A stretch of 50,709 bases of DNA. Source: a phage. Within the stretch, counting starts at the first letter, position 1. Each line of letters opens with the position of its first letter. The DNA is taken from the sequence record NC_105617.1; one strand, 5' to 3'. Under the pieces are notes generated by a model. That model was not told where the DNA came from and did not search any database. It saw only the letters and a program-made list of their open reading frames with translations. The position numbers were made by a program, and so were the translations under genes. Positions 27,670 through 50,709 of this stretch are shown in pieces.

Positions 27670-27720
27670 TAGCACTTTTTGCTAAAAACGTTTACTGTAT
27701 GCCGTGTATTATATCGTAAA
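27670..27720 (+). promoter_or_regulatory. Box-hairpin-(-10) cassette upstream of helicase
   Basis: tagcactttttgctaaaa, 22-nt spacer, TATTAT; hairpin cgtttac/gtaaacg. Confidence 0.5.
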
Positions 27721-30182: not shown

Positions 30183-30228
30183 CACTTTTTGTTAAAACTG
30201 CCTGAATGGAATCTGGCATTATTATCCC
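30180..30228 (+). promoter_or_regulatory. Box-hairpin-(-10) cassette upstream of dam
   Basis: TAG stop of upstream gene = box start; ttgtta + 22 nt + CATTAT; near-duplicate of minus cassette 40057-40099. Confidence 0.5.
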
Positions 30229-30249: not shown

Positions 30250-30963
30250 ATGAAAGACTTTAAAGATATCGAAACAATCGACTTTGCAGAAACCGGGTGC
30301 TCATTCACTCGCGAAGCAATAGCATCAGGCGGTTATTATCAAGCATTGAAAACGCCAACCTGCAAAGAGATTTCAGGACGTCGATACAAGGGAACAAATA
30401 CACCTGACGCAGTTCGTGATTTATGGTCAACCCCACGCGAGGTTATCGCATACCTTGAGGGTCGCTACGGAAAATATGATCTCGACGCTGCGGCAAGCGA
30501 AGAAAATAAAGTTTGCGAGAAGTTTTATTCCCAGGAAACAAACTGCTTAAAACGTTGGTGGGGTAAAAATAAGCACGTATGGTTAAACCCTCCTTACAGT
30601 CGACCTGATATATTCGTCAAGAAAGCGATTGAGCAAATGGAGCACAACAACCAGATCGATATTCTTTTACCTGCCGATAACTCGACTGCGTGGTTTACTG
30701 AGGCTCGACAGCACGCGGCTGAAATCATCTGGATTGAAGCTGATTTGACTGAGGATATTGACGGCAATGAATACGCACGATCCGGTCGCTTGGCTTTCAT
30801 ATCCGGTGAAACTGGAAAGGCGGTTGACGGCAATAACAAAGGTTCGGTAATTTTCATTATGCGCGAACTTAAAGAGGGTGAGACACAGCAAACTCACTAT
30901 ATCCCAATCACAAGCATTTGCCCTTCGGTGAAAAACAAGCGCGCAAAAGTGAGGAAAGTATGA
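30250..30963 (+). CDS. dam: DNA N6-adenine methyltransferase (phage Dam family)
   Basis: 237 aa; catalytic NPPY motif (WLNPPYS); architecture of phage orphan Dam enzymes. Confidence 0.8.
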   Translation: MKDFKDIETIDFAETGCSFTREAIASGGYYQALKTPTCKEISGRRYKGTNTPDAVRDLWSTPREVIAYLEGRYGKYDLDAAASEENKVCEKFYSQETNCLKRWWGKNKHVWLNPPYSRPDIFVKKAIEQMEHNNQIDILLPADNSTAWFTEARQHAAEIIWIEADLTEDIDGNEYARSGRLAFISGETGKAVDGNNKGSVIFIMRELKEGETQQTHYIPITSICPSVKNKRAKVRKV

Positions 30964-31211
30964 TGAACGATAAAATGATTCCGGTTAAGTTAACTGATCA
31001 AGGTTTATGGCTGCTTTATCGAGCTACCTGCTGCGAAATTATGGAGAGAAACGGATTGACTCAGGATGTTATTGGTTGCGATCTGTGGGAGTTCACTAGT
31101 TCTCTTGATATGTCTTTCGACGAGATAAAAAGTGAATGCATAGAGAATTGGCCTTCAATCATACAGAAAGACGTGGAAGAACTTAAAGCTGATACAATCG
31201 TAAAGCACTAA
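30960..31211 (+). CDS. Hypothetical protein
   Basis: ATGA overlap with dam stop, RBS GAGGAAAG; 83 aa. Confidence 0.4.
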   Translation: MMNDKMIPVKLTDQGLWLLYRATCCEIMERNGLTQDVIGCDLWEFTSSLDMSFDEIKSECIENWPSIIQKDVEELKADTIVKH

Positions 31212-31250
31212 TTGCTAAAAATACCCGGCGAAAGTCGGGTATAGTTATTT
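31204..31250 (+). promoter_or_regulatory. Box-hairpin-(-10) cassette
   Basis: agcacTAAttgctaaaaa + 22 nt + TATAGT; hairpin tacccg/cgggta. Confidence 0.5.
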
Positions 31251-32047: not shown

Positions 32048-33199
32048 ATGTCACAAGCTAAAATCACTACCGAGCAACTTATTGAAGAGCGCATGAGCGG
32101 ACTTACACTTCGCGAGATTGCGGAAAAGTACGGCATGCACATTCGCACTGTTGAAGCTCGTCACGCAAAACTTGCAAAGGAAGGTCACTTCCACGGTAAC
32201 GAGCATGTTGCTAAGAACGTACCGGAAGGATTCATGGTAAAAGGCACATCAACGATGATTCGCGGCGATGGGACCGAGGTAGTGCGATGGGTTAAGACCG
32301 ATCAGGACCGTGAGAAGATTGCGGCAATGATGGAAGCAGCGCGTATTGCATTCTGTGAAGACTTGCCGAGAGCAAAACCAACTGAGCTACTCACATCGCA
32401 AGGGCTTACAACCGCTATTGGCAAGCTGGCACTCTACCCGGTGTTCGATCTTCACATTGGCGCGCTCGCTCACAAGCATGAATGCGGAGAGAACTACTCT
32501 ACAGACGTAGCGGAAAAAGTGCTGAATGACTTCTTTAACTACGCGATCGATATTGCCCCGAACGCAGAGAAGGCTGTTCTGTTAATCGGCGGCGACTTCC
32601 TTCACTCAGACGGTCTTGATTCTGTTACCCCGGCAAGCGGTCACGTTCTGGATCAGGATTCACGATATGCGAAATTGGTGCATGTGGCTATTCGATCGGT
32701 GCGAAGAGCTATCGACAAAATGCTGACTAAACACAAAGAGGTCGAAGTTCAGGTTATCGAAGGGAACCACGACCAGGCCGGAATGATTTGGCTACGCGCT
32801 GCAATGGCTGCATACTATGAGGACGAGCCGCGAGTATTCGTTGACGTTAGTCCTATGATTCTGCATAAGACCCGCTGGGGAAATACCTTGTTGGGATACA
32901 CTCACGGTCACACGATGAAAAAGGCAGACACGCGACTTGCAGCGATGGCGGCAGACTTCCGTGCAGACTTCGGTGAAAGCAAATACGTGTATACTCACAG
33001 TGGACACTGGCACCATCAAACAATCACAGAACACTCGTTAGGTATTGATGAGGTTCACGGGCAGTTAGGCGCGAAAGATGCATACGCCGCGCGAGGCGGG
33101 TGGCGCTCATATCGCCAGGCGGCGGTAATCGTTTACGATAAACAGTTTGGTGAAATCGGTCGATTCATCTATCGTCCAGAAATGACAGGATCGCACTAA
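32048..33199 (+). CDS. Calcineurin-like metallophosphoesterase with N-terminal HTH (sigma70 region 4-like)
   Basis: Motifs DLH, GGDFLHSDG, GNHD, GHTH/GHWH; N-terminal LTLREIAEKYGMHIRTVEARHAKL resembles sigma-70 region 4.2 / LuxR-type HTH. Confidence 0.6.
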   Translation: MSQAKITTEQLIEERMSGLTLREIAEKYGMHIRTVEARHAKLAKEGHFHGNEHVAKNVPEGFMVKGTSTMIRGDGTEVVRWVKTDQDREKIAAMMEAARIAFCEDLPRAKPTELLTSQGLTTAIGKLALYPVFDLHIGALAHKHECGENYSTDVAEKVLNDFFNYAIDIAPNAEKAVLLIGGDFLHSDGLDSVTPASGHVLDQDSRYAKLVHVAIRSVRRAIDKMLTKHKEVEVQVIEGNHDQAGMIWLRAAMAAYYEDEPRVFVDVSPMILHKTRWGNTLLGYTHGHTMKKADTRLAAMAADFRADFGESKYVYTHSGHWHHQTITEHSLGIDEVHGQLGAKDAYAARGGWRSYRQAAVIVYDKQFGEIGRFIYRPEMTGSH

Positions 33200-33235
33200 T
33201 CGCCAAAAACTCCCGAAGGGATTCGGGTATATTGA
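33192..33235 (+). promoter_or_regulatory. Box-hairpin-(-10) cassette (degenerate box)
   Basis: cgcacTAAtcgccaaaaac + 22 nt + TATATT; hairpin cccgaa/ttcggg. Confidence 0.45.
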
Positions 33236-34678: not shown

Positions 34679-34890
34679 GCATCAGCCCACATGTAACTTT
34701 CGTTCGTGAGTTTTGCGTATTCGCGAACCTCAATCTCGCAGGTGTCGCCGTACATCTCAGCGACCTTCTTCTCGTTCGCTACCGCCGTTTCTTCAGTCCA
34801 TCCATCAGCCTTGCTGTAAAGTGTAGGAATCTCACTGCTAGTGCCGTTAGAGTGGTTGTAAACGCGAACTACTAAAAATTTGTTAGCCAT
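34675..34890 (-). CDS. Hypothetical protein
   Basis: 71-aa ORF behind a minus-strand box-hairpin cassette; ends at a bidirectional terminator. Confidence 0.45.
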   Translation of the reverse strand: MANKFLVVRVYNHSNGTSSEIPTLYSKADGWTEETAVANEKKVAEMYGDTCEIEVREYAKLTNESYMWADA

Positions 34891-34927
34891 GATGTTTTCC
34901 TTCAGGTCGTTTCATTTCGATGAAACA

Positions 34928-34970
34928 AATATACCCGATACGAGATCGGGTGTTTTAACAAAAAGTGCTA
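34928..34970 (-). promoter_or_regulatory. Box-hairpin-(-10) cassette (minus)
   Basis: Minus strand tagcactttttgttaaaac + 22 nt + TATATT; hairpin cccgat/atcggg. Confidence 0.5.
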
Positions 34971-35079
34971 TTTGTACCTTTTCACATGAAGGAGCAACTC
35001 GCCATCCTGATCGCAAAGATTGTGTTCGCTGTCATTGTTGGCCCTCATTGAAGTAAGTAACAGGCTGAGTAACCCCTGT

Positions 35080-35487
35080 TCAAATTCTTCCTTTGTAAGC
35101 TGGAGTCTTGCGCACAATTCGACGTTCCGATCTATCAATGTTTCTACGTTCGCCAAACAAATCCTCATCACTCATCTCTCCAATGTGCATCATTTCCCAC
35201 GTATACCGATTGCTGTAGCCATCAATACACAACAGCTTCATCATTACCGGGCGCTTAATCTTTCCCTTGCACCAGTAAACACCATCCTTGCGATCCAAGT
35301 AACCCTCAGTCACGCAACGAGAGCAAAACTCCTTAGATAGCGCACTTGTAAATTCACGGTGAGTCATTCCAGCAGCCTTAGCAAATCGCTCACTTTCCTT
35401 GTGGGCGTATATAAATTTCGCTATGTGCTGTCGGGTGTATTTGTCGTAACCTTCGCAGAACCTGAACAGATCTAAAAGAAGCAGCAT
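35080..35487 (-). CDS. Hypothetical protein, possible winged-helix DNA-binding
   Basis: 135 aa; segment ERFAKAAGMTHREFTSALSKEF...GYLDRKDGVYW has HTH-like character; directly downstream of the P-loop NTPase gene. Confidence 0.35.
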   Translation of the reverse strand: MLLLLDLFRFCEGYDKYTRQHIAKFIYAHKESERFAKAAGMTHREFTSALSKEFCSRCVTEGYLDRKDGVYWCKGKIKRPVMMKLLCIDGYSNRYTWEMMHIGEMSDEDLFGERRNIDRSERRIVRKTPAYKGRI

Positions 35488-37089: not shown

Positions 37090-37132
37090 ATGATACACCG
37101 CCAATGGTATACGCTTTTTGCAAAAAGTGCTA
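37090..37132 (-). promoter_or_regulatory. Box-hairpin-(-10) cassette (minus)
   Basis: Minus strand tagcactttttgcaaaaa + 22 nt + TATCAT. Confidence 0.45.
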
Positions 37133-37136
37133 TTGG

Positions 37137-37589: not shown

Positions 37590-37632
37590 ACTTTATCAAA
37601 TGACCTTACGGCAATATTAACAAATCGTGCTA
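37590..37632 (-). promoter_or_regulatory. Box-hairpin-(-10) cassette (minus)
   Basis: Minus strand tagcacgatttgttaat + 22 nt + TAAAGT; near-duplicate of plus cassette 45457-45505. Confidence 0.5.
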
Positions 37633-37633
37633 T

Positions 37634-37846
37634 TTACCAGGGAATATAATCGTCGTCGTCATTATCACCAATATCATCGCCGGGCATCTCGAAGTCGGGA
37701 TTATATTCACTTTCTGCGTCCATATCCATATTCCCTAGCGCGTCGTCAAGCGTAATTTCTTTATATGCAACCTTGATACACCATTCCGCACTAAGCCCGG
37801 CATCGAGCGCGGCAAAATAACGAGTCCAGAAATTATCCTGTTCCAT
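37634..37846 (-). CDS. Small acidic protein with SSB-tail-like C-terminus
   Basis: 70 aa; C-terminal 35 residues strongly acidic, ending ...GDNDDDDYIPW, resembling the SSB tail DDDIPF. Confidence 0.5.
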   Translation of the reverse strand: MEQDNFWTRYFAALDAGLSAEWCIKVAYKEITLDDALGNMDMDAESEYNPDFEMPGDDIGDNDDDDYIPW

Positions 37847-38107: not shown

Positions 38108-38151
38108 AATATACCTTACTCCCTATTTATTGTCTTTAGCAATTAGTGCTA
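38108..38151 (-). promoter_or_regulatory. Box-hairpin-(-10) cassette (minus)
   Basis: Minus strand tagcactaattgctaaag, hairpin gggagta/tactccc with TATATT in loop (spacer 23). Confidence 0.45.
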
Positions 38152-38295
38152 TCAGTACTCGGAAATTACTTTACACTCTTTGATTGTTCCACCTAGAACT
38201 ACTTTCTGCATCATTGCTTTTTGGTGGCTATCGTAAACGCGAACATTTTTTACGCTGTTAAATTTGCCAGTATAGAAAGTGTGAATATAAATCAT
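38152..38295 (-). CDS. Small hypothetical protein (micro-ORF)
   Basis: 47-aa ORF below track cutoff; ATGA overlap with upstream stop; its own stop TGA directly abuts a TAGCAC box. Confidence 0.25.
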   Translation of the reverse strand: MIYIHTFYTGKFNSVKNVRVYDSHQKAMMQKVVLGGTIKECKVISEY

Positions 38296-39224: not shown

Positions 39225-39267
39225 ACTATACCAGCCATCCATGCCGTGCGTTTAGCAAAAAGTGCTA
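39225..39267 (-). promoter_or_regulatory. Box-hairpin-(-10) cassette (minus)
   Basis: Minus strand tagcactttttgctaaacg + 22 nt + TATAGT. Confidence 0.5.
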
Positions 39268-39270
39268 TCC

Positions 39271-39639: not shown

Positions 39640-39682
39640 ACTATACCCCGATCTCACTCGGGGCGTTTAGCAATTCGTGCTA
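39640..39682 (-). promoter_or_regulatory. Box-hairpin-(-10) cassette (minus)
   Basis: Minus strand TAA stop + tagcacgaattgctaaac + 22 nt + TATAGT; hairpin ccccga/tcgggg. Confidence 0.55.
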
Positions 39683-40018
39683 TTAATCGATATCAAACTC
39701 AGCGGCGTATGCTTTCTTGAAGCCAGCTTCGCGCATAGTGCGCTTGCTGATTTTGCGCGGGAATTTGTACTGGCTGTTAGGCTTGACCCACCAGAAGCAG
39801 GAAGTCTCGCGAACGATTTCATATTTACCGTAACGAGTGAAGGTATCGCGTTCCATATCAGGCTGATTAACACAGGTCAGGAATTTAGCTGCTTTGTCTT
39901 CAGTTTTGATTTCTTCCCAAACGAATGAGTCCATTCCGTTAACCTTGCAAGCAACCATGATGTACTCAACGCCGTTTTCGATTTTGATGATTTCGTTACC
40001 GCGATTTTCGTATTTCAT
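39683..40018 (-). CDS. Hypothetical protein
   Basis: Start at ATG 40018 with RBS AGGAG downstream of cassette 40057-40099. Confidence 0.45.
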   Translation of the reverse strand: MKYENRGNEIIKIENGVEYIMVACKVNGMDSFVWEEIKTEDKAAKFLTCVNQPDMERDTFTRYGKYEIVRETSCFWWVKPNSQYKFPRKISKRTMREAGFKKAYAAEFDID

Positions 40019-40056: not shown

Positions 40057-40099
40057 ATAATGCCAGATTCCATTCCGGCAGTTTTAACAAAAAGTGCTA
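40057..40099 (-). promoter_or_regulatory. Box-hairpin-(-10) cassette (minus)
   Basis: Minus strand tagcactttttgttaaaac + 22 nt + CATTAT; box encodes C-terminus of MTase-like gene. Confidence 0.5.
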
Positions 40100-40788
40100 T
40101 TTGCGATCGCTTTAAAAAATCCCCTGGGCGACAGGGATCGTATCAACTTAGTTTTGGCAGATTTGCCGCCTAGCTTACTGTGCTGTGCAGAGTACCCGTC
40201 AGGCAGGCTTACAGGTTTTCTCTCGGGCATGACAAAATCGTCAGAGGTCCAAAGGCAAGTTTTCTTCGGGTAAGCATCGCGCGGCGCAATATACATCGGG
40301 AACCAGGGGTGTGAGTCATTCTCAGGAAGATAGCCGCCATACTCCCAGGGATTGAAGGAGTGATTTGGTTTTCTCCAGGCAGATGACAGGACGCTAACCG
40401 GATTCTCAATGATGTAAGTCACGCCCAGGCTATCGCCAATGTTCGCAGCAATCCGGGCGGTGGCAACAGCCTTCTCCTGGAATAACTGATCGCGTTCACG
40501 CTTTCTTGCGAAGTGAGCGGCACCACTAACAGCTAGGTCAGTGCACGGCGGGAAGGCCATAATGAAATCCGGCTTGCCATACACGCCAGCGATAGCATCA
40601 CGCTCAAACGCTGCGTCAATGAACACGTTCACATACTCAATGTTCGGATGCTCCACTCGGGCATTGTACTTTGCGTAATCTCCGTGATCGGCTCCGTCAA
40701 AGTTGAAGCACATTACCTTGTGACCTTGCTTAGCTAGCTCATGACCAGCAAGACCGGAACCGTCGAATAGGGACCAAATCAACTTCAT
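40084..40788 (-). CDS. DNA cytosine-C5 methyltransferase-like protein (compact, noncanonical)
   Basis: Motif I-like LFDGSGLAG, motif IV-like FPPCTDLAVSGA (PC dipeptide, T in place of Q), motif VI-like IIENPVS; only 234 aa; last five codons (NSTFC-stop) are encoded by a TAGCAC box. Confidence 0.5.
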   Translation of the reverse strand: MKLIWSLFDGSGLAGHELAKQGHKVMCFNFDGADHGDYAKYNARVEHPNIEYVNVFIDAAFERDAIAGVYGKPDFIMAFPPCTDLAVSGAAHFARKRERDQLFQEKAVATARIAANIGDSLGVTYIIENPVSVLSSAWRKPNHSFNPWEYGGYLPENDSHPWFPMYIAPRDAYPKKTCLWTSDDFVMPERKPVSLPDGYSAQHSKLGGKSAKTKLIRSLSPRGFFKAIANSTFC

Positions 40789-40928
40789 TTTGCGATCTCC
40801 TTTTTGTAGTGATTCAGCTTGTCGATGATTGACTTCGACTTGTTGGCTAGCGCCATGTCAGAGAACAGAGCTACGCGATAGATGTGTTCGTAACGATTAA
40901 TGGCTGCGTTGATGTTTGCAATATTCAT
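40785..40928 (-). CDS. Small hypothetical protein
   Basis: 47 aa from ATG 40928 behind CCAATCAGAGGA leader; first gene of the minus-strand block. Confidence 0.35.
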   Translation of the reverse strand: MNIANINAAINRYEHIYRVALFSDMALANKSKSIIDKLNHYKKEIAK

Positions 40929-41018
40929 GTCGATTCCTCTGATTGGTTGATGAGATGAATCATACCCGATCGGCAGTGCTGATGTGTTGCAAAAAATGCT
41001 ATTCCAATAGTTGCTCAT

Positions 41019-41610
41019 TATTCCACCATCAATGGAATATCTGGAATAATTGCGATCCCGATTGATCTCGAATGATGAAATGTGATTGTTGCATGGTGTG
41101 CAACTGTTGATGTGATTGTTTCTTAGAATGCAATGATTGTGAGAGGGGGGATTTAGTGTTACCCGGTTCGCCTGGTGGTCATCTCCATTTTTAGCAAAAC
41201 GTGCTATCGATTACAATTTAACTTGTCACGACTGTAATATTTGTCTAGAATCGCACTTGTGACAAAATTACGCACTGTGACGCATCACAATAGACATATA
41301 GATATATGTATATATATAATATATATAGTGTTTTTTTTATTTATATATATAGATAATTATATTGTAATAGTTGTGTATAGCCGTCTTACATTGTCTAGCG
41401 TACTGTTGGCATATTTCTATCTGCATGTTTATATATACAGTACTTTTTTGAGGGCTATATATTTCTATAGTGACTCTAGACAGCTAGACAAATATTACAC
41501 AGCTTAAAATTGGCTTGCAGTCGTTGACAGCTCTACGTCGCTCTGTCACAATGGCAATTGTTGACATGCTATGACACCATTTACACACCAATAGACAAAG
41601 AGGGCACATT
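41019..41610. repeat. AT-rich divergent control region with repeated TGTCAC/GTGACA and TTGTCTAG/CTAGACAA motifs (hub 2)
   Basis: Repeats tgtgattgtt x2, acttgtcac/acttgtgac, ttgtctag x2, ctagaca x2, atagaca x2; (TA)n tracts 41295-41360. Confidence 0.5.
41524..41552 (+). promoter_or_regulatory. Candidate sigma70 promoter for plus-strand early block
   Basis: TTGACA-17 bp-CACAAT about 58 nt upstream of ATG 41611. Confidence 0.4.
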
Positions 41611-42126
41611 ATGAGCAATACCAATCAGGAATTAAAAATCACCGACATGATTCGACTAACCTGCGATGCAATGTACCGCGACAAAGGCATGACCGAGTTC
41701 TCTTTCGTGGCTGATGATATGGCCCTAGAAGCAGCGCGATTCTACTTTCGTGGCCAGGAGGTAAGTGATAGCGATCTTGAATCTGCCGCTGCCGGATGGG
41801 TGGACCAGAACCAGGGGGAGGTAGAGAAGCGATTCAAATCTGCTTTCATCACTCCAATCATTACCCGACACTTTTGCAAGTATGGCAAGGTGGCAAAGGT
41901 GAAGGTAGGCCGGAATGACGCGGCAATCACGATGATAACCGTTATCGTTACCGACGAAGAGGTTCCGGTGAAGAAGCGCCGCAGCCGGAAAAAAGTTAGC
42001 CTGGCCGACTGCCTTGATTCGTTTGACGTTGATGTTAGCAAGCTATCCGATAGCGAGTTAATGGTTCGTGATGTGAATGAGATCGTGCGCCAGATGAAAG
42101 CACATATTGAAAAGTGTGGACTGTAA
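41611..42126 (+). CDS. Hypothetical protein
   Basis: 171 aa, first gene of the plus-strand early block, RBS AGAGGG; basic patch KKRRSRKK. Confidence 0.5.
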   Translation: MSNTNQELKITDMIRLTCDAMYRDKGMTEFSFVADDMALEAARFYFRGQEVSDSDLESAAAGWVDQNQGEVEKRFKSAFITPIITRHFCKYGKVAKVKVGRNDAAITMITVIVTDEEVPVKKRRSRKKVSLADCLDSFDVDVSKLSDSELMVRDVNEIVRQMKAHIEKCGL

Positions 42127-42138
42127 GGAGAGATGAGT

Positions 42139-42378
42139 ATGAGCAAGATTAAGCATGACGCCCTGAAAGGTATCTTGATGCGACTAAACCCAGGTGAAGC
42201 ATTCCAGCTTAACCCCGAGACGTTTGGATTCAATGGTGATTATCGTACAACCTTCGAATTTGTCCGGTATGTAAAGAAAGAGTTTGGATTCGAAGTTATT
42301 CACGCAGGTCTTATCAATGGCATCCAGACATTCATCTTTAAGCCAAATGAGATTCGTTGCTTCACGCTGATGAAATAG
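42139..42378 (+). CDS. Hypothetical protein
   Basis: ATG 42139 preferred over 42133 for RBS spacing; stop TAG lies in a TAGCAC box. Confidence 0.45.
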   Translation: MSKIKHDALKGILMRLNPGEAFQLNPETFGFNGDYRTTFEFVRYVKKEFGFEVIHAGLINGIQTFIFKPNEIRCFTLMK

Positions 42379-42424
42379 CACTTTTTGTTAAAACCGGAGC
42401 GGGATAACCTGGTATAGTTATCCC
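42376..42424 (+). promoter_or_regulatory. Box-hairpin-(-10) cassette
   Basis: TAG stop = box start; ttgtta + 22 nt + TATAGT; hairpin gggataa/ttatccc. Confidence 0.55.
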
Positions 42425-42449
42425 ATCGACAACGAATGAGGAAACGAAG

Positions 42450-42644
42450 ATGGAAACGCAAATTGACGTAGTGGTTGTTCAGCGTGACTCCACCCATGAA
42501 AAGGGGCTATTCAAGAAAGGAACTGAAATCACGATAGACCTTGAGGATATGGTTGCATATCACTCGGGTCTTACCTGGAACGTGGTGCGCGTAGGCAGCG
42601 ACTACAAACTCAAAGGCTTTAACACTTACTTTGCGGAGGTTTAA
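42450..42644 (+). CDS. Hypothetical protein
   Basis: 64 aa behind cassette 42376-42424. Confidence 0.45.
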   Translation: METQIDVVVVQRDSTHEKGLFKKGTEITIDLEDMVAYHSGLTWNVVRVGSDYKLKGFNTYFAEV

Positions 42645-42646
42645 TT

Positions 42647-43117
42647 ATGACAACCATTACCGTATTTCTTGCTAAAGATGAGCTTGATGGCGAAATGTCA
42701 TTCTTCGCGTTTGAGCACAAGACCGGATCGCACTGGCATGCGTACACTCACTACACGGTTATCTCAATCGAGGCGTTCGAAGGTGATTCACTCACTGATA
42801 AGCTGAGTTATTTTGTTGAAGCGGTTAAGGCTAGCGGCGGCTGTGAGTGGAAAGAAGATCACGAAGTTATGCGAATGCTTGAGATGGTCAATCCGGTTCG
42901 ACTTGAGTCTTTCGAGCTTGATTCTTACGTGAGCATTAAGGTGAGAAAGCCGGGTGAGTTGTTGCCAGGGATGCGTGTGCTGACTGGTTACTCAGGTCGT
43001 AAAGTGTGGCGAACCATATCGAAGATTCGACAGCGCTCAGAAACATGCTACAGCGTGTTCTTTGATGACGGCTGGAATGAGGTTGCTGGTAGTAACGTGA
43101 AGTATCTTACCAAATAG
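42647..43117 (+). CDS. Hypothetical protein
   Basis: 156 aa; stop TAG inside a TAGCAC box. Confidence 0.45.
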   Translation: MTTITVFLAKDELDGEMSFFAFEHKTGSHWHAYTHYTVISIEAFEGDSLTDKLSYFVEAVKASGGCEWKEDHEVMRMLEMVNPVRLESFELDSYVSIKVRKPGELLPGMRVLTGYSGRKVWRTISKIRQRSETCYSVFFDDGWNEVAGSNVKYLTK

Positions 43118-43163
43118 CACGAATTGCTAAAACCGGATCGGGGTATCTTGCTATAGTTACCCC
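43115..43163 (+). promoter_or_regulatory. Box-hairpin-(-10) cassette
   Basis: TAG stop = box start; ttgcta + 22 nt + TGcTATAGT; hairpin ggggta/tacccc. Confidence 0.55.
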
Positions 43164-43196
43164 ATCAAAACGACACACCAATCAGAGGATTTCACC

Positions 43197-43460
43197 ATGT
43201 CAATCGTCAAGAATAGAAACGCAATTGAAGCTACTCGCCACAACAAGCAACACGCGATTTTCATTGCTCGCTACTGCTCAAGCATCAATGGTGGCTTGCA
43301 GTATCGCCGCTATGCAGTGATTGAGCTTTCCCCATACATTTACAAAGAGTATCGAGAGGAGAATGGCAAGTGGATTGAGATTGAGGGCGTAACGAGCTTC
43401 TTGATCTGGAATGGTGAATTTCAGGGGTACGACGATATCAGCACTTTAATTGAGGAATAA
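43197..43460 (+). CDS. Hypothetical protein
   Basis: 87 aa behind cassette 43115-43163 with CCAATCAGAGGA leader. Confidence 0.45.
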   Translation: MSIVKNRNAIEATRHNKQHAIFIARYCSSINGGLQYRRYAVIELSPYIYKEYREENGKWIEIEGVTSFLIWNGEFQGYDDISTLIEE

Positions 43461-43466
43461 ATAATC

Positions 43467-43694
43467 ATGCCACGTTACAGCAACCTAACCAAACTAATCC
43501 GCGTCAACGGGCACATGATCCCGGCTAAATCTACTCACTGCGCGAAAGGCGCAAAGCACGGATTATATTTCAAGTGGCGCGGTCAATGGAACTTCACGGC
43601 GGTGAGCAATTTTTACATGCGCGTTCCTGGTGATGATCCGCAATCGGTAGTAGAAAACTCAATCGGCGACAACAAGATCGAGGTACTAAAATGA
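43467..43694 (+). CDS. Hypothetical protein
   Basis: 75 aa, basic. Confidence 0.45.
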   Translation: MPRYSNLTKLIRVNGHMIPAKSTHCAKGAKHGLYFKWRGQWNFTAVSNFYMRVPGDDPQSVVENSIGDNKIEVLK

Positions 43695-43801
43695 ACTTCA
43701 ATACAATAGCTCTATGGTCTGCCGTCTGGTTCTTCTGCATGGGTCACGTTATGGTCGGCATCGTGGTAATGCTTCTCCTGTGTGCGGGGGCGTTCGAATG
43801 A
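43691..43801 (+). CDS. Small transmembrane peptide (micro-ORF)
   Basis: 36 aa MNFNTIALWSAVWFFCMGHVMVGIVVMLLLCAGAFE; ATGA overlap with both neighbours. Confidence 0.3.
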   Translation: MNFNTIALWSAVWFFCMGHVMVGIVVMLLLCAGAFE

Positions 43802-43971
43802 TGCGAATATTGATTTGCATGATGGCGGCGGTCGCCCTGGCTATCCTGGTAGTGTCAGGATGCGGAGAGGTCAGAGATAGCTGTCATAAGACCGGGAACC
43901 AGGTTACTACGCTTGTGATGGTTGGCAACGTTTTGCTACCAATCACATCAAATGAGATCACTTGCGAATAG
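43798..43971 (+). CDS. Small lipoprotein (putative)
   Basis: 57 aa from ATG 43798; signal peptide MMRILICMMAAVALAILVVSGC with lipobox VSGC. Confidence 0.4.
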   Translation: MMRILICMMAAVALAILVVSGCGEVRDSCHKTGNQVTTLVMVGNVLLPITSNEITCE

Positions 43972-43980
43972 GATTTAAAA

Positions 43981-44172
43981 ATGGCTGATTTTATGCACCA
44001 AATGATTGCAGTATTCAAAGGTAGCGAAGATGAGGAAGTAAAAGAGTGCTTTACTGTCGACAAGCATTATAACGCTTCGCTAACCAGCTTCGGTAACATC
44101 TCATTGCTTGATGATAATGGCGATCCCTGGGTATTCGATGAAGATACGGATTGCTTCGAAATTAAAGAATAG
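43981..44172 (+). CDS. Small acidic protein
   Basis: 63 aa rich in D/E; stop TAG inside a TAGCAC box. Confidence 0.45.
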   Translation: MADFMHQMIAVFKGSEDEEVKECFTVDKHYNASLTSFGNISLLDDNGDPWVFDEDTDCFEIKE

Positions 44173-44218
44173 CACTTTTTGTTAAAACGCGATCATGTGG
44201 TTGCGATATAGTAACCAC
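44170..44218 (+). promoter_or_regulatory. Box-hairpin-(-10) cassette
   Basis: TAG stop = box start; ttgtta + 22 nt + TATAGT; hairpin gtggtt/aaccac. Confidence 0.55.
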
Positions 44219-44243
44219 ATCGACAACGAATGAGGACGAGAAC

Positions 44244-44732
44244 ATGAAAATTAAATTACTGTGCACTGGCGGTTACAAAGGCTTTACTCGCGACCTGGAA
44301 TCAGACCCGATTATCGTTGACGCTGTGAAGTGCGATGATAGCACGGGCGGCTACCGCGTCAAGGTTGACGACCTGGTAAAAGCTGGCGTGTACGATCTGG
44401 ATTACGGCCTATCGGTTAGTCCAGTATTTGGCCCGGCTGACTTCAACGAAAATGACGGAACGATGTTCTTTTTTGAATGGGAAGTCCAGGCAAACATCAA
44501 GCCGCGCAAGGTTCGACTTCTCAACAATGGCGGGTATCCTATGCGCCCTGGTTATGAGAATCGCACGTTCCCGGTTATTGTTGACTTTGAGGAAATTACC
44601 AGCACCCTGGCTTACGTTGGAAATGAACAACTCAATGCTGTAGGTTTTTGGGGTGGGATGAATAAAGAGTCTCTTTGCTTCTTCCATCGCGACACCGAAC
44701 CGTTCTCTATTGAGTGCGAGTTAGTTTACTGA
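44244..44732 (+). CDS. Hypothetical protein
   Basis: 162 aa behind cassette 44170-44218. Confidence 0.5.
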   Translation: MKIKLLCTGGYKGFTRDLESDPIIVDAVKCDDSTGGYRVKVDDLVKAGVYDLDYGLSVSPVFGPADFNENDGTMFFFEWEVQANIKPRKVRLLNNGGYPMRPGYENRTFPVIVDFEEITSTLAYVGNEQLNAVGFWGGMNKESLCFFHRDTEPFSIECELVY

Positions 44733-44780
44733 GCACGAATTGTTAAAAGGGGATTCGTCCTGACTGGTACAATCCACATA
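44730..44780 (+). promoter_or_regulatory. Box-hairpin-(-10) cassette
   Basis: tGAgcacgaattgttaaaag + 22 nt + TGgTACAAT. Confidence 0.5.
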
Positions 44781-44803
44781 TCAACCACTAAGAGGAAATC
44801 ATT

Positions 44804-45310
44804 ATGTTGAAATTAGAAGACGTAAAATTCCCGATTAAATTTATCAGCCTGGGTTGCGGTGAAATTACATTCACCAGTGAAGATAAAGGCAAGTGGGCAA
44901 CTGATGAGGTGTCTCAGCTTAAGTTGGATTGGTTTATCAATAGGCACAATGAAGTAAATCCTGAAAACTCAGCCAAGAAGGATTACCATTACATTATTAG
45001 TGGTAGTCAGGATGTGTACGAAAAGTATGATGGTTGGAAAACTGATCGATCCATCTTCCACCCCGCAAAGCCAGAAATTAAACCGATGTTACAATGCACT
45101 CAGATCGAGAACATGCCATTGAGCGCTACGATAAAGGGCGTCCAACTTGATAGCGAATCCTGGGCCGAGATTACCGCAACACCTAAAACTATTGAGGTGC
45201 ATGATGATGTAGTGATTCTCCTATTGCATTACGGCAGCTTTAAGCACAAAACGGTATCAGGTGAAATAAGCATTAAGCGCGGAACACTTGTACGCTATGA
45301 GGTGAAATAA
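44804..45310 (+). CDS. Hypothetical protein
   Basis: 168 aa behind cassette 44730-44780. Confidence 0.5.
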   Translation: MLKLEDVKFPIKFISLGCGEITFTSEDKGKWATDEVSQLKLDWFINRHNEVNPENSAKKDYHYIISGSQDVYEKYDGWKTDRSIFHPAKPEIKPMLQCTQIENMPLSATIKGVQLDSESWAEITATPKTIEVHDDVVILLLHYGSFKHKTVSGEISIKRGTLVRYEVK

Positions 45311-45459
45311 TGGCTTCATGGGTTTTGATTATCTTAATGAGTACCGGGCCAGATCACGTATACATGGAAAGCCAACAATCATGCAACAAGGCTCGGGAGG
45401 TGATTTCAGAGAACAGGCCGTTCGGATACGAAGTAAAAACGATGTGCGTTAAACGATAG
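45310..45459 (+). CDS. Small hypothetical protein (micro-ORF)
   Basis: 49 aa with hydrophobic N-terminus (MASWVLIILMSTG); TAATG overlap upstream; stop TAG is the TAG of a TAGCAC box. Confidence 0.3.
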   Translation: MASWVLIILMSTGPDHVYMESQQSCNKAREVISENRPFGYEVKTMCVKR

Positions 45460-45505
45460 CACGAATTGATAAACCTTCCGCAAGGCCATTTGATATAGTG
45501 GCCTT
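45457..45505 (+). promoter_or_regulatory. Box-hairpin-(-10) cassette
   Basis: TAG stop of micro-ORF = box start; ttgata + 22 nt + TGaTATAGT; hairpin aaggcca/tggcctt. Confidence 0.55.
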
Positions 45506-45539
45506 ATTGAAGCAAGGCAACCAATCAGAGGAATCAGCT

Positions 45540-45746
45540 ATGGCTACACGACTAACTCAGTGGCAGATTTACGACAAGGCCTCACGCCTACGTGAATCAC
45601 TTCGCGGACTGACGCAGAATGACAGAATGGAGATTATCGGGCACGCATTGCACGAACTCACGCCGCCGGACGTAACCTATCATTCATGCGGCAATAAATT
45701 CTGGAACGTGACATTCGAGGTAAAGAAAGATGAGCAAAACTCATAA
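45540..45746 (+). CDS. Hypothetical protein
   Basis: 68 aa from ATG 45540 behind CCAATCAGAGGA leader. Confidence 0.45.
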   Translation: MATRLTQWQIYDKASRLRESLRGLTQNDRMEIIGHALHELTPPDVTYHSCGNKFWNVTFEVKKDEQNS

Positions 45747-46017
45747 GTTAAAAATCGCCCCGATACATTTCATTGGTGTAATGAACGGAACCAAAACGGC
45801 AGAGTTCCGCATCAATGACCGCAACTTCCAGGTTGGTGATATCCTTGAGCTACGCGAGTTCGATCGTGACGAGTTTACCGGGTGGGAAGTTCACGCAAGG
45901 GTATCCGATGTTACCGATGTGACGCCATACATTAATCGCGGGTATGACGATCAAGGATGCGACTTCACGCAATACGTGATGTTATCAATCAAACCTTACA
46001 GGAAGGTTAGACCATGA
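45730..46017 (+). CDS. ASCH/PUA-like domain protein (putative)
   Basis: 95 aa; N-terminal pattern KTHKLKIAPIHFIGVMNGTKTAEFRINDRNFQVGDIL resembles ASCH-type domains; weak. Confidence 0.35.
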   Translation: MSKTHKLKIAPIHFIGVMNGTKTAEFRINDRNFQVGDILELREFDRDEFTGWEVHARVSDVTDVTPYINRGYDDQGCDFTQYVMLSIKPYRKVRP

Positions 46018-46670
46018 AATTTGAATGCGTATCAAGTAGCGGATCGGGCTTTAAGTGGGGAAAAATCTACGAAGGCGCTCGAGTCAATGACGACAGCTTC
46101 GTTGTCGTGGATGAGAACGGCAGTAACGTTAACATCACCCGTCGTAACGAGTACCAAGAAATTTTCCTGCCGTATGGCGGTAGTTCAAAATATATCTTCC
46201 ATCGAATCGTGGATGGTGTTAAATTTAGAGACGTAATCGAAGCAATCAACCAACTGCATAATAAAGAGGTAAAATTTATGAAATTTGAATGTATCAGCGA
46301 TAACACCAAAAAATTTACTGTTGGAAAAATCTACGACGTTCCTACTGAGCACGCAAAGCACACTGTAGCGCTTACTGACGACACTGGCCGTCACCGCATC
46401 GCTACCGTAACGCATAATGGCGAAGGTCTGCGATGGAATAGCGGCGGCACTAAGTTTGCAACGTTCGGCAAGAAGAAGCAGAAATTTAATACCAGTAGAA
46501 TCAAGGGCGGTTTCCGCATCGAACAGGGTAAGATTCAAAGCGTTAAGCCAATCGAAGTTGATGGTAAAGTCAAGCCTAAGCTGACCAACAAGGACATTGA
46601 TAATCTGGCGAACCTGGCTATGGCTACCGTGCTTCTTATTTCTCTTATCGTGCTGTTTTTCGTAGTTTAA
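46014..46670 (+). CDS. Tail-anchored membrane protein with tandemly duplicated N-terminal domain
   Basis: Two about 88-aa repeats each starting MKFEC(V/I)S...GKIY(E/D), second with its own SD AAGAGG; C-terminal TM LANLAMATVLLISLIVLFFVV. Confidence 0.5.
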   Translation: MKFECVSSSGSGFKWGKIYEGARVNDDSFVVVDENGSNVNITRRNEYQEIFLPYGGSSKYIFHRIVDGVKFRDVIEAINQLHNKEVKFMKFECISDNTKKFTVGKIYDVPTEHAKHTVALTDDTGRHRIATVTHNGEGLRWNSGGTKFATFGKKKQKFNTSRIKGGFRIEQGKIQSVKPIEVDGKVKPKLTNKDIDNLANLAMATVLLISLIVLFFVV

Positions 46671-46677
46671 CTTAAAG

Positions 46678-46709
46678 TGGGAATCGTTCCTGAGCGGTTC
46701 CCTATTTTT
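46678..46709 (+). terminator. Terminator-like hairpin
   Basis: gggaatcg/cggttccc stem (one G-T pair) followed by T-rich tract. Confidence 0.35.
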
Positions 46710-46720
46710 ATGAGGTGAAT

Positions 46721-46843
46721 ATGAATAGCTTTATGCCTGACTTTAAGAACTGGAAAAACGAACCTCCATCATTTCAGGAGTTGCTATTCTGCCTCCTGGT
46801 CCTGACATTATCTCTTAAGGGTGTTTTATGGCTACTATCATGA
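46721..46843 (+). CDS. Small hypothetical protein (micro-ORF)
   Basis: 40-aa ORF with RBS GAGGTG and hydrophobic C-terminal half; overlaps next gene start. Confidence 0.25.
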   Translation: MNSFMPDFKNWKNEPPSFQELLFCLLVLTLSLKGVLWLLS

Positions 46844-47046
46844 CAGCAGAAGATGCAGCACGTGAAGCAGTGGAAGGAATGCGACCAAATACCTCCAGAA
46901 TCGCACACTACTACAAATTTGACGTATCGGCAGTGCAATTGGTCCATGAAATTTTAAGGCTCCCACAAGTCGATTCAGCGCGTGTGGTGGCGTGCTTAAA
47001 AAATTATTTTTGCATCACTATTAAAACGAATAGCACGAATTGCTAA
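46828..47046 (+). CDS. Hypothetical protein
   Basis: 72 aa; last five codons (NSTNC-stop) are encoded by a TAGCAC box. Confidence 0.45.
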   Translation: MATIMTAEDAAREAVEGMRPNTSRIAHYYKFDVSAVQLVHEILRLPQVDSARVVACLKNYFCITIKTNSTNC

Positions 47047-47079
47047 AACCTATCAAGGGGAATGCGCTATGATTCCCCT
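47031..47079 (+). promoter_or_regulatory. Box-hairpin-(-10) cassette
   Basis: Box encodes last codons NSTNC-TAA of upstream gene; ttgcta + 22 nt + TATGAT; hairpin ggggaat/attcccc. Confidence 0.5.
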
Positions 47080-47103
47080 ACACCAACGAACGAGGGAATA
47101 CTC

Positions 47104-47550
47104 ATGAAACACTTGATTTGCATTGATACACCTAACAATGAACACACTCTGCACGGCATTGGGATGTTCAAAGGCCACTACATGACAGCAAGCATTTATG
47201 ATGCGCATCGCGACGATGGCGATCTGATGATTACGTCAAAAGACGTTAATCCGTACATCATGCAGAATCTTGGCAACAATGAATATATGGCTTACGGATG
47301 CAACGCGGTGTACAAGAATGTCAAGATCCGTAAGCGTATTGTTCGCGCATTTAAGAAAATCGCCATGAAGCACTGGAAGATGAGCAAGAAGGAGGCTGGG
47401 CGCTGGGCGCGTAACGTTGCTGATTCATACTTCTATCGTAACGGTGAGTCGTGCCACTTCCTGATCGATGAAATGATGGAAAATTATAGCGGCACATTCC
47501 GCCAAAGTGATTTTGACGCTTGGGCTTACTACGAGGTAGATTGCTGGTAA
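47104..47550 (+). CDS. Hypothetical protein
   Basis: Start at ATG 47104 with RBS GAGGG, downstream of cassette 47031-47079. Confidence 0.45.
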   Translation: MKHLICIDTPNNEHTLHGIGMFKGHYMTASIYDAHRDDGDLMITSKDVNPYIMQNLGNNEYMAYGCNAVYKNVKIRKRIVRAFKKIAMKHWKMSKKEAGRWARNVADSYFYRNGESCHFLIDEMMENYSGTFRQSDFDAWAYYEVDCW

Positions 47551-47597
47551 TAGCACGAATTGCTAAAACTTACTCAAGGGCATTTGGTAGAATGCCC
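47551..47597 (+). promoter_or_regulatory. Box-hairpin-(-10) cassette
   Basis: ttgcta + 22 nt + TGgTAGAAT; hairpin gggcat/atgccc; CCAATCAGAGGA leader downstream. Confidence 0.55.
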
Positions 47598-47633
47598 TTC
47601 GTTGAGTTAAACAACCAATCAGAGGAATAAATC

Positions 47634-48167
47634 ATGGATAAAATTACAATTTGGGGTCAAACTATCAACCTGTTTCTCGGTCCGCGCCGCGTCGCAATCT
47701 TTGACTTTGACGGAACACTGAGTGACGGATCAAAGCGCCTTCACCTGTTGCCAAAAAAGGATTTGCACTTGACTGAAAGCTGGTCTGAGTTTAATCGAGC
47801 CGCAATATTTGATAACCCCATCCAGAGCACGATTGAGGTGATGAACTCATTACGCCAAGCTGGGGTGTATGTAATCATTTTAACCGGGCGAAGCGATGAG
47901 GTGCGTTACGCATCTGAGTTATGGCTTAAGCATCACGGTGCGCGATATGATTACTTAGTCATGCGACCGCACACAGACAACCGGAAAGACACAGTGATGA
48001 AAGAGGAAGCGGTGCGAGCGATCGGTATTGAAAACATCCTCGCGGCTTGGGATGATTCACCGCAAATTATTCCATTATTCCGGTCGCTTGGAATAACCAC
48101 ATATGCTGTAGTTGACTATGGCGATAACGTTCACGATCATTTAAAATCGCACGGGGTAGAGAAATGA
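47634..48167 (+). CDS. HAD-superfamily phosphatase (polynucleotide 3'-phosphatase / nucleotidase-like)
   Basis: HAD motif I FDFDGTL, motif II ILTGRSD, DNRKDTVMKEE segment, motif IV AWDDSPQ; resembles the phosphatase domain of T4 polynucleotide kinase as recalled. Confidence 0.6.
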   Translation: MDKITIWGQTINLFLGPRRVAIFDFDGTLSDGSKRLHLLPKKDLHLTESWSEFNRAAIFDNPIQSTIEVMNSLRQAGVYVIILTGRSDEVRYASELWLKHHGARYDYLVMRPHTDNRKDTVMKEEAVRAIGIENILAAWDDSPQIIPLFRSLGITTYAVVDYGDNVHDHLKSHGVEK

Positions 48168-48274
48168 ACCTATACGAATTTATTGCAGCACATCCGGTAT
48201 TGACGGTTATCATCCTGCTAATCATCAATCACACTATCATAAATGTAGCAAAATTATTTTTAGGGAGATACTGA
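48164..48274 (+). CDS. Small transmembrane peptide (micro-ORF)
   Basis: 36-aa ORF MNLYEFIAAHPVLTVIILLIINHTIINVAKLFLGRY; ATGA overlap with phosphatase stop. Confidence 0.3.
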   Translation: MNLYEFIAAHPVLTVIILLIINHTIINVAKLFLGRY

Positions 48275-48275
48275 C

Positions 48276-48848
48276 ATGAAAACAGCTATCGTTTTAAACG
48301 GCGCGCCTGGAGCGGGAAAAGACACTATCGGATGCATCCTGGCTGACACTTACGATCACGTAGCCTTGCGCAGCTTCAAAGCGCCAATGTTTGAGATTGC
48401 CCGGGCAATCCTGGGTGAAGCTAACTACGAGTATTTCATGTTCTTGTATGAGGACCGTCGATATAAAGAAGAGCCAGCATCCATCCTGAACGGTAAAAGC
48501 CCACGCCAGTTTATGATCTGGATTAGCGAGGAAGTCATCAAGCCGCAGTTCGGAAATCGCTTCTTCGGTATGCGAGCGGAAAGCAAGGTGAAAGAGTCAC
48601 ACTCCCTTTCTGTATTTACTGACGGTGGATTCAAAGATGAGATCTTGCAAATGATTGAAGGCGATATCCAGGTCAAGCTATGCCGCATACATCGCAACGG
48701 CTGCAACTTCGATAACGACAGTCGAGATTATATCTACCTGGATGATATGATCGGTGTCAACGGTTATCAGGAATGTGACTTCTTCTCTGTCGAAGGTCAT
48801 CCAGAAATTACCGCTCAGCACATAGCCGCTACGTTCATCAACAAATAG
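48276..48848 (+). CDS. P-loop nucleoside-monophosphate kinase-like protein (dNMP kinase candidate)
   Basis: Walker A GAPGAGKDT at N-terminus; LNGKSP segment; overall resemblance to phage dNMP kinases as recalled. Confidence 0.5.
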   Translation: MKTAIVLNGAPGAGKDTIGCILADTYDHVALRSFKAPMFEIARAILGEANYEYFMFLYEDRRYKEEPASILNGKSPRQFMIWISEEVIKPQFGNRFFGMRAESKVKESHSLSVFTDGGFKDEILQMIEGDIQVKLCRIHRNGCNFDNDSRDYIYLDDMIGVNGYQECDFFSVEGHPEITAQHIAATFINK

Positions 48849-48895
48849 CACTAATTGCTAAAACGTCGGTGGGGTGATTTGATATAGTCACCTCA
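48846..48895 (+). promoter_or_regulatory. Box-hairpin-(-10) cassette
   Basis: TAG stop = box start; ttgcta + 22 nt + TGaTATAGT; hairpin ggtga/tcacc. Confidence 0.55.
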
Positions 48896-48920
48896 TCGAC
48901 AACGAAGAGAGAAAATAGAA

Positions 48921-50634: not shown

Positions 50635-50657
50635 ACCCGCTACGGCGGGTTTTTTTA
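50635..50657 (+). terminator. Intrinsic terminator
   Basis: acccgc-tacg-gcgggt plus T7. Confidence 0.6.
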
Positions 50658-50709
50658 TGCCTGCGATATGGTAAAATAGCACTAAATGTTAAACGAAGAG
50701 GATTGATTT
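50658..50709 (+). promoter_or_regulatory. Post-terminator -10-like element and TAGCAC box leading to window end
   Basis: gcctgcGATATGg then tagcactaaatgttaaac and RBS gaagagga at the window end. Confidence 0.35.

Follow-up and report, generated by a model that had tools for sequence, protein, structure and literature searches.

The 21-nt repeat of T1-like phages supplies stop codons to upstream genes and coincides with gene-cassette junctions

Introduction

T1-like phages carry a 21-nt direct repeat, aaATAGCACnnnTTGnTAAAA, which in phage TLS is present in 18 intergenic copies ~76 nt upstream of start codons and is known from T1, Rtp, and Rogue1 as well; what it does was left as an open question, with a stoperator, an enhancer site, or an UP element suggested (German et al., 2024; PMC11447400). 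Here we describe this repeat in sequence record NC_105617.1, a complete 50.7-kb T1-like phage genome (Drexlerviridae, Tunavirus; hereafter, the window), for which a preliminary description made from the sequence alone had singled out a "TAGCAC box" as a gene terminus and universal 3' junction. The box is itself the already known repeat, and it resembles the TLS and T1 copies in its consensus, in the A/T/G subtypes of its central nnn, and in its multi-copy, intergenic, and co-directional occurrence. Overlap with stop codons, box-encoded protein tails, a 22-nt spacing to a hexamer with a hairpin, and a role at mosaic junctions are not mentioned in the TLS paper (PMC11447400), and no description of stop-codon overlap, box-coded tails, or a junction role was found in the searchable literature. 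Literature searches for the motif and for Drexlerviridae transcript mapping yielded the TLS paper only.

The closest functional system is that of the composite promoter/stem-loop motifs (PeSLs) of T4-like phages, which occur at indel endpoints in plastic genome regions and for which modular shuffling has been proposed (Comeau et al., 2014; PMC4122927). PeSLs and box elements are alike in being short, in lying between small accessory genes at the endpoints of indels, replacements, and deletions, and in that recombination between copies has been proposed. Description of PeSLs is reportedly also owed to Arbiol et al. in 2010. In a PeSL, the stem-loop lies upstream of a near-canonical promoter (-35/N17/-10) and there is no separate conserved box, whereas the box element has a conserved 21-nt quasi-palindrome in place of the -35, with 22 nt as the spacing, its hairpin occupies the spacer or surrounds the -10, and the upstream gene's stop is supplied by the element, a feature that Comeau et al. 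(2014; PMC4122927) do not mention for PeSLs. The position at indel and replacement endpoints is shared, the ~17-nt -35/-10 spacing and the stem-loop upstream of the promoter are not, and the box element is best filed as a PeSL-like variant.

Integron cassettes are small or promoterless open reading frames (ORFs) bounded at the 3' side by attC, an imperfect inverted repeat that often holds the ORF's stop codon. In promoter-coupled terminators, a stem-loop constitutes the -35, a T-tract the spacer, and the -10 lies downstream (Fletcher et al., 2026, preprint; 10.64898/2026.08.19.745784); as in box elements, stem-loop and promoter of adjacent units overlap, but most box hairpins lack a T-tract and many enclose the -10. 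The stoperators of mycobacteriophage L5 (Brown et al., 1997, as cited in PMC11447400) are, as far as that citation describes them, likewise many short, asymmetric sites between genes that are oriented with transcription. They are repressor sites of a temperate phage, whereas T1-like phages are virulent and the fixed geometry of the box relative to a -10-like hexamer suggests a promoter function rather than that of a stoperator.

Among the non-coding features of the Drexlerviridae, a large and heavily sequenced family with many therapeutic candidates, the 21-nt repeat stands out most. The results below make it likely that the box is a conserved upstream module of small transcription units in T1-like phages, doubling as a stop codon for the preceding gene and as portable homology for recombination.

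Results

Identity of the repeat

The 12.7 kb around the region treated in the preliminary description is 90-92% identical to Tunavirus genomes (LeonhardEuler, Sfin-1, XJA18, and others), and gene order is the same in annotated relatives. The bare hexamer TAGCAC was not enriched in the window (27 occurrences, 19.4 expected); the full motif, TAGCACNNNTTGNTAA, was present in 19 exact copies (0.03 expected), and a weight matrix built from these recovered 31 sites, ~25 of them strong. The window consensus, aaATAGCACnnnTTGnTAAAAc, is exactly the direct repeat published for TLS, and its many copies, intergenic position, and occurrence in a Drexlerviridae genome place it among the T1-like 21-nt repeats. 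Plus-strand boxes between 42 and 49 kb lie 73-83 nt from the ATG. Exceptions to the intergenic, co-directional placement are three antisense copies (6690-, 10455-, and 26129+) and a copy at 50677 that is directly followed by a Shine-Dalgarno sequence (SD). Among the IMG/VR matches listed, the motif was found in multiple copies only in contigs of ~50 kb, and lone matches in unrelated contigs were at the level expected by chance for 15 specified bases.

Stop codons in and beside the box

Every coordinate given in the preliminary description was correct on rechecking, and its view that the box closes two reading frames, one with TAG and another with a TAA at +13, was confirmed. In the window, 13 genes end on a codon within the box, eight of them on the TAG, three on the TAA at +13, and two on a TAA at +6 (Table 1). 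The box TAG is the stop of 29766-30182, 42133-42378, 42647-43117, 43981-44172, 45310-45459, and 48276-48848, as well as of two genes overlooked earlier (14379, gene 14028-14381; 34970(-), gene 34968-35168); gene 44244-44732 ends on a TGA in a variant box (cTGAGCAC, 44730-44732). The stops at +6 are formed by the central nnn of boxes in which the TAG is mutated (31203 and 33191). For seven genes besides these 13, the stop is the gene's own and lies 1-7 nt upstream of the TAG (offsets -1, -3 three times, -4 twice, and -7), and in three of these the two stops are in frame and in tandem (TAA-TAG or TGA-TAG). The gene set was that of a crude gene caller, and stop-codon counts were corrected by hand at 14022-14440 and 34889-35056. 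On this basis, the TAG frame holds 13 of the 20 box-abutting genes (binomial P = 0.004), and TAG is used by 8 of the 20 compared to 1-3 of the ~67 others (Fisher P = 2e-4 to 2e-5), such that 8 of about 9 TAG stops in the genome are box TAGs. Pfam domains were complete in genes ending on the TAG (Phage_min_tail, 1-108 of 108; VRR_NUC, 2-115 of 116). Since boxes that head gene blocks, and thus have no co-oriented upstream gene, also keep the TAG, this codon belongs to the motif and is not present because of its role as a stop.

The last five codons of 46828-47046 and 40084-40788(-) are encoded by the box, as originally described: the frame AAT AGC ACn nnT TGn TAA runs through it to give NSTNC* and NSTFC*, respectively. 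In 27204-27656(-), likewise, the frame continues through the box to the +13 TAA, making this a third read-through gene, which ends ...TTNSIFS*. Selection for the NST(N/F)C tail as a peptide was rejected as an explanation, since the proteins that have the tail are unrelated to one another and their orthologues in the other register lack it. In a separate observation, the fixed 22-nt spacing described below places the TAG of the -10-like TATAGT at +39, in the frame of the box TAG (e.g., 42376-42417); amber read-through of the box TAG would therefore be halted again 13 codons on.

The pattern extends to other T1-like phages. At 12 diverse T1-like loci from IMG/VR, the box TAG stops the upstream ORF at 34 of the 56 boxes that have one, and 9 more boxes provide the +13 TAA, with tails such as NSTNC, NSTFC, DSTNC, and KSTNC. 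When 58 T1-like loci were pooled and their C-termini clustered into 128 unrelated families, the box TAG was the stop in 64 families, the +13 TAA in 20, and the +6 TAA in 5, and the TAG frame accounted for 83 of the 128 (P = 3e-13). The same pattern is seen in the GenBank CDS annotations of a Klebsiella Webervirus. In the gene family that includes window gene 32048-33199, the stop lies at -3 in one phage, at +6 in another, and at +13 in a third. In all homologues examined that carry a (N/G/D/K)ST(N/F)C tail, a box is present in the DNA at that point, so no tail occurring independently of a box came to light.

Homology breakpoints at the box

To compare relatives, 34-50.7 kb of the window was aligned against 17 of them, giving 53 unique homology breakpoints. 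Eleven fell within the box (2.0 expected, P = 4e-6), eight of these 1-4 nt before the TAG, and 14 fell in the 3' part of the element (4.6 expected, P = 1e-4); altogether, elements covering 12.5% of the region hold 25 of the 53. Using the downstream gene as an anchor to define orthologous boxes, we found that three or four unrelated genes, all ending on the box TAG, can precede one and the same box. Directly upstream of box 42373 (TAG 42376), relatives have unrelated genes, ending ...CFTLMK* or ...VEFTVE*, or no extra gene, and at the box with TAG 44170 four unrelated genes end on the TAG (...CFEIKE*, ...CVGAFE*, ...NEITCE*, and ...CFTLMK*). The 49-aa gene upstream of element 45454-45539 and the ORF downstream of it (45540-45746) are each missing in some relatives, with breakpoints at the element's edges, and four relatives have insertions of 186-209 nt at the 3' end of element 47548-47633 (47628-47631).

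Box-flanked gain and loss of genes between related genomes, which the preliminary description had proposed to look for, was found in three cases. In L008, a deletion between boxes 39267 and 40099 has left the methylase-like gene next to the orthologue of box 39267, the overlap being 18 nt and internal to the box, and the gene still ends ...ANSTFC*. In L014, a deletion has fused boxes 42376 and 44170, and the resulting hairpin combines the 5' arm of one element with the 3' arm of the other and is now mismatched. In L019, a 308-nt insertion lies between two boxes; it brings a -10-like hexamer of its own, again at 22 nt, as well as a leader and an ORF with the end ...RWIGSTNC*, another unrelated example of read-through. 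The box subtype (TTT or GAA) follows the upstream gene and the hairpin the downstream gene, indicating that crossovers take place inside the element and that each cassette carries its own stop codon. Together with the clustering of breakpoints, these chimeric elements bear out the earlier view of the box as a 3' junction. Between paralogous elements, 21-22 nt are exactly identical and similarity extends over 63-94 nt (75-87% identity), and the crossover points vary, lying within TAGCACTTTTTG, within or after TATAGT, or at +58 to +82. The phage has a recombination module (Table 1), and its ERF single-strand annealing protein and PDDEXK exonuclease are a plausible, and probably the actual, engine of box-by-box recombination.

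We regard as unlikely the explanation that the box is a regulatory site only, against which genome streamlining has pushed stop codons, with no part in recombination and with edge breakpoints that reflect a conserved motif beside fast-evolving genes. Stops at -1 to -7 and the tandem TAA-TAG and TGA-TAG pairs are what tight packing without recombination would produce, many cassettes are boxed at one end only, and the intergenic indels observed would be the viable ones. Such compaction does not account for crossovers inside elements, as in the chimeric box of L008, the mixed hairpin arms of L014, and the two-box insertion of L019, or for the segregation of box subtype with the upstream gene and hairpin with the downstream gene.

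At the junction orthologous to 42127-42373 in three relatives (L002, L015, and L016), the 81-aa gene is absent and the upstream gene ends TGAGCACTGAACGGTAAA directly before a full box. This end resembles a second, degenerate box in tandem with the full one, perhaps the scar of a cassette loss.

Architecture of the element

The box contains an imperfect dyad, TAGCA-N5-TG(C/T)TA. In 21 of 28 elements a -10-like hexamer, usually TATAGT, lies exactly 22 nt after TTGnTA, and in 10 of these 21 it is preceded by TG. A hairpin in the spacer either ends at the hexamer or encloses it in the loop, and the hexamer is conserved as TAnnnT at the same distance from the box in both arrangements; a conserved leader, CATCGAnAACGA, and an SD follow. 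The hairpin z-score was -3 or lower in 12 of 20 elements. Hairpin arms are not conserved in sequence but covary, with compensatory changes between orthologues (e.g., TGTGGTT/AACCACA and GGGGTT/AACCCC). Assuming that transcription starts ~7 nt after the hexamer, the dyad would be centered at about -42, a geometry that fits a class II activator with an extended -10. Judged from this arrangement, the box element is probably a factor-dependent promoter module.

A candidate for the binding protein is the conserved "transcriptional regulator" encoded by 27204-27656(-) (Table 1). The divergent box 27667-27688 (+) abuts the SD of this gene, an arrangement that suggests autoregulation, and the assignment of the regulator as the box-binding protein is speculative. 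To our knowledge, none of the consensus sites of E. coli CRP, FNR, IHF, Fis, LexA, and DnaA, nor the T4 MotA box, fits the box in sequence or spacing, and therefore we propose no host factor.

Tests for intrinsic terminators were negative, as no box hairpin in 37-50.7 kb passed the T-run criterion on its own strand; the single call among these hairpins was on the opposite strand, for the hairpin of 38151(-). T-rich tails follow the hairpin at a few copies elsewhere (34970, 31203, and 27219), and the hairpins may punctuate or stabilize upstream transcripts. It seems improbable, nevertheless, that box and hairpin are essentially a 3'-end, terminator, or processing module or an RNA-binding target in which the hexamer is merely a loop or U-rich tail. 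In accord with a function in RNA, the hairpins are statistically real and their arms covary, terminator-finding programs called such hairpins terminators in phage SA30RD, and a T-rich TATATTTGTTT follows the hairpin in some copies (34970 and 31203). Most hairpins, though, have no U-tract and fail the terminator scan, TAnnnT is kept at one distance from the box both in elements with the hexamer in the loop and in those with it past the stem, and boxes head divergent gene blocks (27670 and 41206), where no upstream transcript should cross. The roles in RNA and as a promoter could coexist.

Ends of the two read-through genes

The preliminary description suggested that the box had truncated the two genes that read through it and that the short length of the methylase-like protein (234 aa) might reflect insertion of a cassette into its 3' end. 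This product of 40084-40788(-), which ends ...AIANSTFC*, matches phrog_757 "DNA methyltransferase" (1.7e-83) up to profile position 217 of 247. It has 4862 homologues, and the 120 listed, which include proteins from unrelated 150-kb phages, are 225-259 aa long except for one 158-aa fragment. The family C-terminus is IRSL(T/S)PRGF.xA(V/I)..AN followed by 1-3 residues, occasionally more, and the window protein retains it (...IRSLSPRGFFKAIAN-STFC). In TLS-type phages, the same gene ends GCA AAT CAG AAA TAG (...LANQK*) on the box TAG where the window has GCA AAT AGC; the window junction is ~7 nt shorter, so that the gene is read in the TAA frame instead of the TAG frame. Two other genera have ...ANAK* and ...ANYRE* on the box TAG, and a 64%-identical homologue from a 44-kb phage ends GCG AAT AGC ACT AAT TGC TAA (ANSTNC*) with a box in its DNA. 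By these comparisons the methylase-like protein is full length, with at most 2-6 terminal residues exchanged for box-coded ones. Indeed, while homology outside the T1-like phages does break off at most a few residues away from the box (97% query coverage), as a truncation would predict, the family C-terminus is intact up to the box and the family is natively 225-259 aa, so that the shortness of the protein does not stem from a cassette insertion.

For the 72-aa ORF 46828-47046, homologues were found only in T1-like phages. The IME347 homologue ends ...IETK* on the box TAG (ACC AAA TAG), and that of JohannLBurckhardt, in which no box follows the gene, ends ...IVTK* on its own TGA. In the window, ACG AAT AGC leads to ...KTNSTNC*, and the SRT8 homologue likewise reads into the box (...EVNSTKS*). 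The natural end of this ORF, as judged from its relatives, is ...TK, and NSTNC is a predicted 4-residue extension from a 1-nt register difference. The window product is thus longer, not shorter, than homologues ending at a box TAG or without a box, contrary to the proposed truncation.

Truncation of genes by box-bearing cassettes inserted into their 3' ends, with loss of a C-terminal part of the methylase, is accordingly very improbable. The end of homology near the box and the PHROG match ending at 217/247 would be expected of it, but several comparisons run counter: the window protein falls within the family length range and has the ...RGFAxAVxxAN motif, the box TAG follows ...ANQK, ...ANAK, or ...ANYRE in other genera of T1-like phages, the 72-aa ORF exceeds its box-free homologue by 3-4 residues, and the Pfam domains of other box-terminated genes are complete. 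A site-specific recombination site resembling integron attC, with a dedicated recombinase or homing nuclease, is also suggested by the order of ORF and conserved imperfect inverted repeat, with the stop inside the repeat, and by cassette gain and loss at that point, but can be dismissed as highly improbable since, unlike a fixed cleavage site, the crossover points vary as homologous exchange predicts, the fixed 22-nt spacing to the hexamer and fixed distance to the start codon are properties of an expression signal (the element, in contrast to attC, carries the expression signals of the next gene), and no integrase was found among the proteins scanned, which comprise only part of the ORFs.

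In Shigella phage vB_SsoS_008 (L006/L021), the homologue of the 72-aa ORF has an internal stop. The methylase homologue there seems disrupted, with a 72-aa ORF that enters the box in the third frame and continues to a stop at +29. Neither 40084-40788 nor 46828-47046 had a Pfam match; for the former, this includes PF00145, with no Pfam match at E < 0.1, although a precomputed PF00145 match exists for a few homologues among the matches listed. Only FDGSG, PPC, and ENP motifs are visible in the 40084-40788 product, which belongs to a large family of ~230-aa proteins and has no room for a target-recognition domain; it may or may not be a conventional DNA cytosine methyltransferase.

Table 1. Boxes, composite elements, and associated genes in the window
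Feature	Position	Strand	Remarks
Box AAATAGCACTTTTTGTTAAAAC	40081-40102	-	+13 TAA stops methylase-like gene; hairpin and CATTAT down to ~40038
Box GAATAGCACGAATTGCTAAAAC	47028-47049	+	+13 TAA stops 46828-47046; hairpin 47056-47079 with TATGAT in loop
Composite element	42373-42449	+	TAG 42376 stops 42133-42378; hairpin around TATAGT, CATCGACAACGA leader, SD, ATG 42450
Composite element	43112-43196	+	TAG 43115 stops 42647-43117; site of box-flanked 308-nt insertion in L019
Composite element	44167-44243	+	TAG 44170 stops 43981-44172; partner in L014 box-by-box deletion
Variant element cTGAGCAC	44728-44803	+	TGA 44730-44732 stops 44244-44732; relatives have TAAGCAC
Composite element	45454-45539	+	TAG 45457 stops 45310-45459
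Composite element	47548-47633	+	Gene 47062-47550 has own TAA, then in-frame box TAG (tandem stops)
Composite element	48843-48920	+	TAG 48846 stops 48276-48848 (P-loop kinase-like, 190 aa); strongest hairpin, z = -7.3
Box	39664-39685	-	Gene 39683-40018/40090(-) ends on TAA, box TAG directly after
Box	39249-39270	-	5' edge is commonest homology breakpoint (6 relatives); partner of box 40081-40102 in L008 deletion
Box	38133-38154	-	Upstream gene TGA, then in-frame box TAG
Box	37614-37635	-	Upstream gene's TAA overlaps AAA flank of box (offset -4)
Box	37114-37135	-	Upstream gene stop at offset -7
Box	34952-34973	-	TAG 34970 stops 34968-35168(-)
Box	30177-30198	+	TAG 30180 stops VRR-NUC gene 29766-30182, domain complete
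Box variant AAGCAC TAA TTG	31200-31221	+	In-frame TAA at +6 stops 30960-31211
Degenerate box TCGCAC TAA TCG	33188-33209	+	TAA at +6 stops 32048-33199
Box variant TAGCAT	27201-27222	-	+13 TAA stops regulator-like gene 27204-27656(-), ...NSIFS*
Weak box-like copy	14376-14397	+	TAG stops minor tail gene 14028-14381; ordinary terminator after
Strong antisense box copies	6672-6693, 10437-10458, 26126-26147	-, -, +	Opposite to surrounding genes
72-aa ORF, phrog_11330	46828-47046	+	Last 5 codons (NSTNC) and TAA within box 47028-47049
Mini C5-methyltransferase-like gene, 234 aa	40084-40788	-	Last 5 codons AAT AGC ACT TTT TGT and TAA within box 40081-40102
PDDEXK exonuclease (DUF3799) 21855-22919 and ERF single-strand annealing protein 22961-23641	21855-23641	+	Phage recombination module
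Conserved Drexlerviridae "transcriptional regulator", 150 aa	27204-27656	-	Weak Cro/YdaS-like helix-turn-helix; 824 phage records

Discussion

If the box is an upstream module of the kind we favor, a dimeric activator or operator protein would sit on its dyad (~-42) at a promoter that lacks a -35. Upstream genes are packed directly against the module. Since it has a TAG in one frame and a TAA 13 nt later in the next, those codons have become the stops of most preceding genes, and small indels at the junction flip a gene between the two. Termination in the TAG frame adds nothing to the protein, while termination in the +1 frame adds (N)-S-T-(N/F)-C, which accounts for the two read-through genes as complete proteins with a few residues exchanged or added. 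Recombination between elements probably deletes, inserts, and swaps leader-ORF-box cassettes, with each cassette's stop codon moving with its half of the box.

Several observations weigh against this reading. The uniform null overstates the enrichment of breakpoints, as a conserved motif beside variable genes attracts them, as do viable intergenic indels. Many cassettes have a box at one end only and a plain gene junction at the other (42127, 43971, 45312, and 45730), and thus not every gain or loss was a box-by-box event. Standard sigma-70 scans do not call the elements, in which TTGnTA and the hexamer are separated by 22 nt and not by 16-18 nt, a spacing that excludes TTGnTA as an ordinary -35. 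Another group annotated such hairpins as rho-independent terminators in phage SA30RD, and the three antisense boxes (6690, 10455, and 26129) have no explanation in a simple promoter model. Two of these (6690 and 10455) are inside the plus-strand structural block and the third (26129) separates two replication genes of the minus strand; all three could be relics or sources of antisense transcripts.

A more far-reaching version of the favored reading is conceivable, although we advance it tentatively and with some doubt: the ~80-nt element might be a gene-cassette adaptor that closes upstream translation in two of three frames, ends or punctuates the transcript with its hairpin, restarts transcription under a family-wide regulator (with 27204-27656 as the candidate), and offers short homology to ERF. 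If true, such an adaptor would be a counterpart, based on homologous recombination, of integron attC/Pc in virulent siphoviruses, and would answer the question posed in the TLS paper.

The function of the repeat, left open in 2024, can now be tested by way of the fixed geometry between box and hexamer, the candidate regulator, and the box-by-box recombinants. For annotation, many small genes of T1-like phages truly end on the box TAG or carry a box-coded STNC or STFC tail, the hairpins of box elements should not be labeled terminators by default, and the boxes allow the mosaic accessory regions of T1-like phages to be divided into cassettes.

Two further features of the window were observed. 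At 41000-41600, between the minus- and plus-strand early blocks, there is an AT-rich divergent region with AT-rich repeats. The best canonical sigma-70 matches in this part of the genome (41223-41251, 41291-41320, and 41524-41552, all on the plus strand) are probably immediate-early promoters for host RNA polymerase. A second repeat family is present in the late region (14398-14434, 16577-16613, and 50635-50671) and consists of a GC hairpin and 7-8 T residues followed by TGTAGAAT, TGTATAAT, or TGCGATAT. The arrangement suggests a fusion of a terminator with an extended -10 promoter, and the three copies match promoter-coupled terminators more closely than the box elements do.

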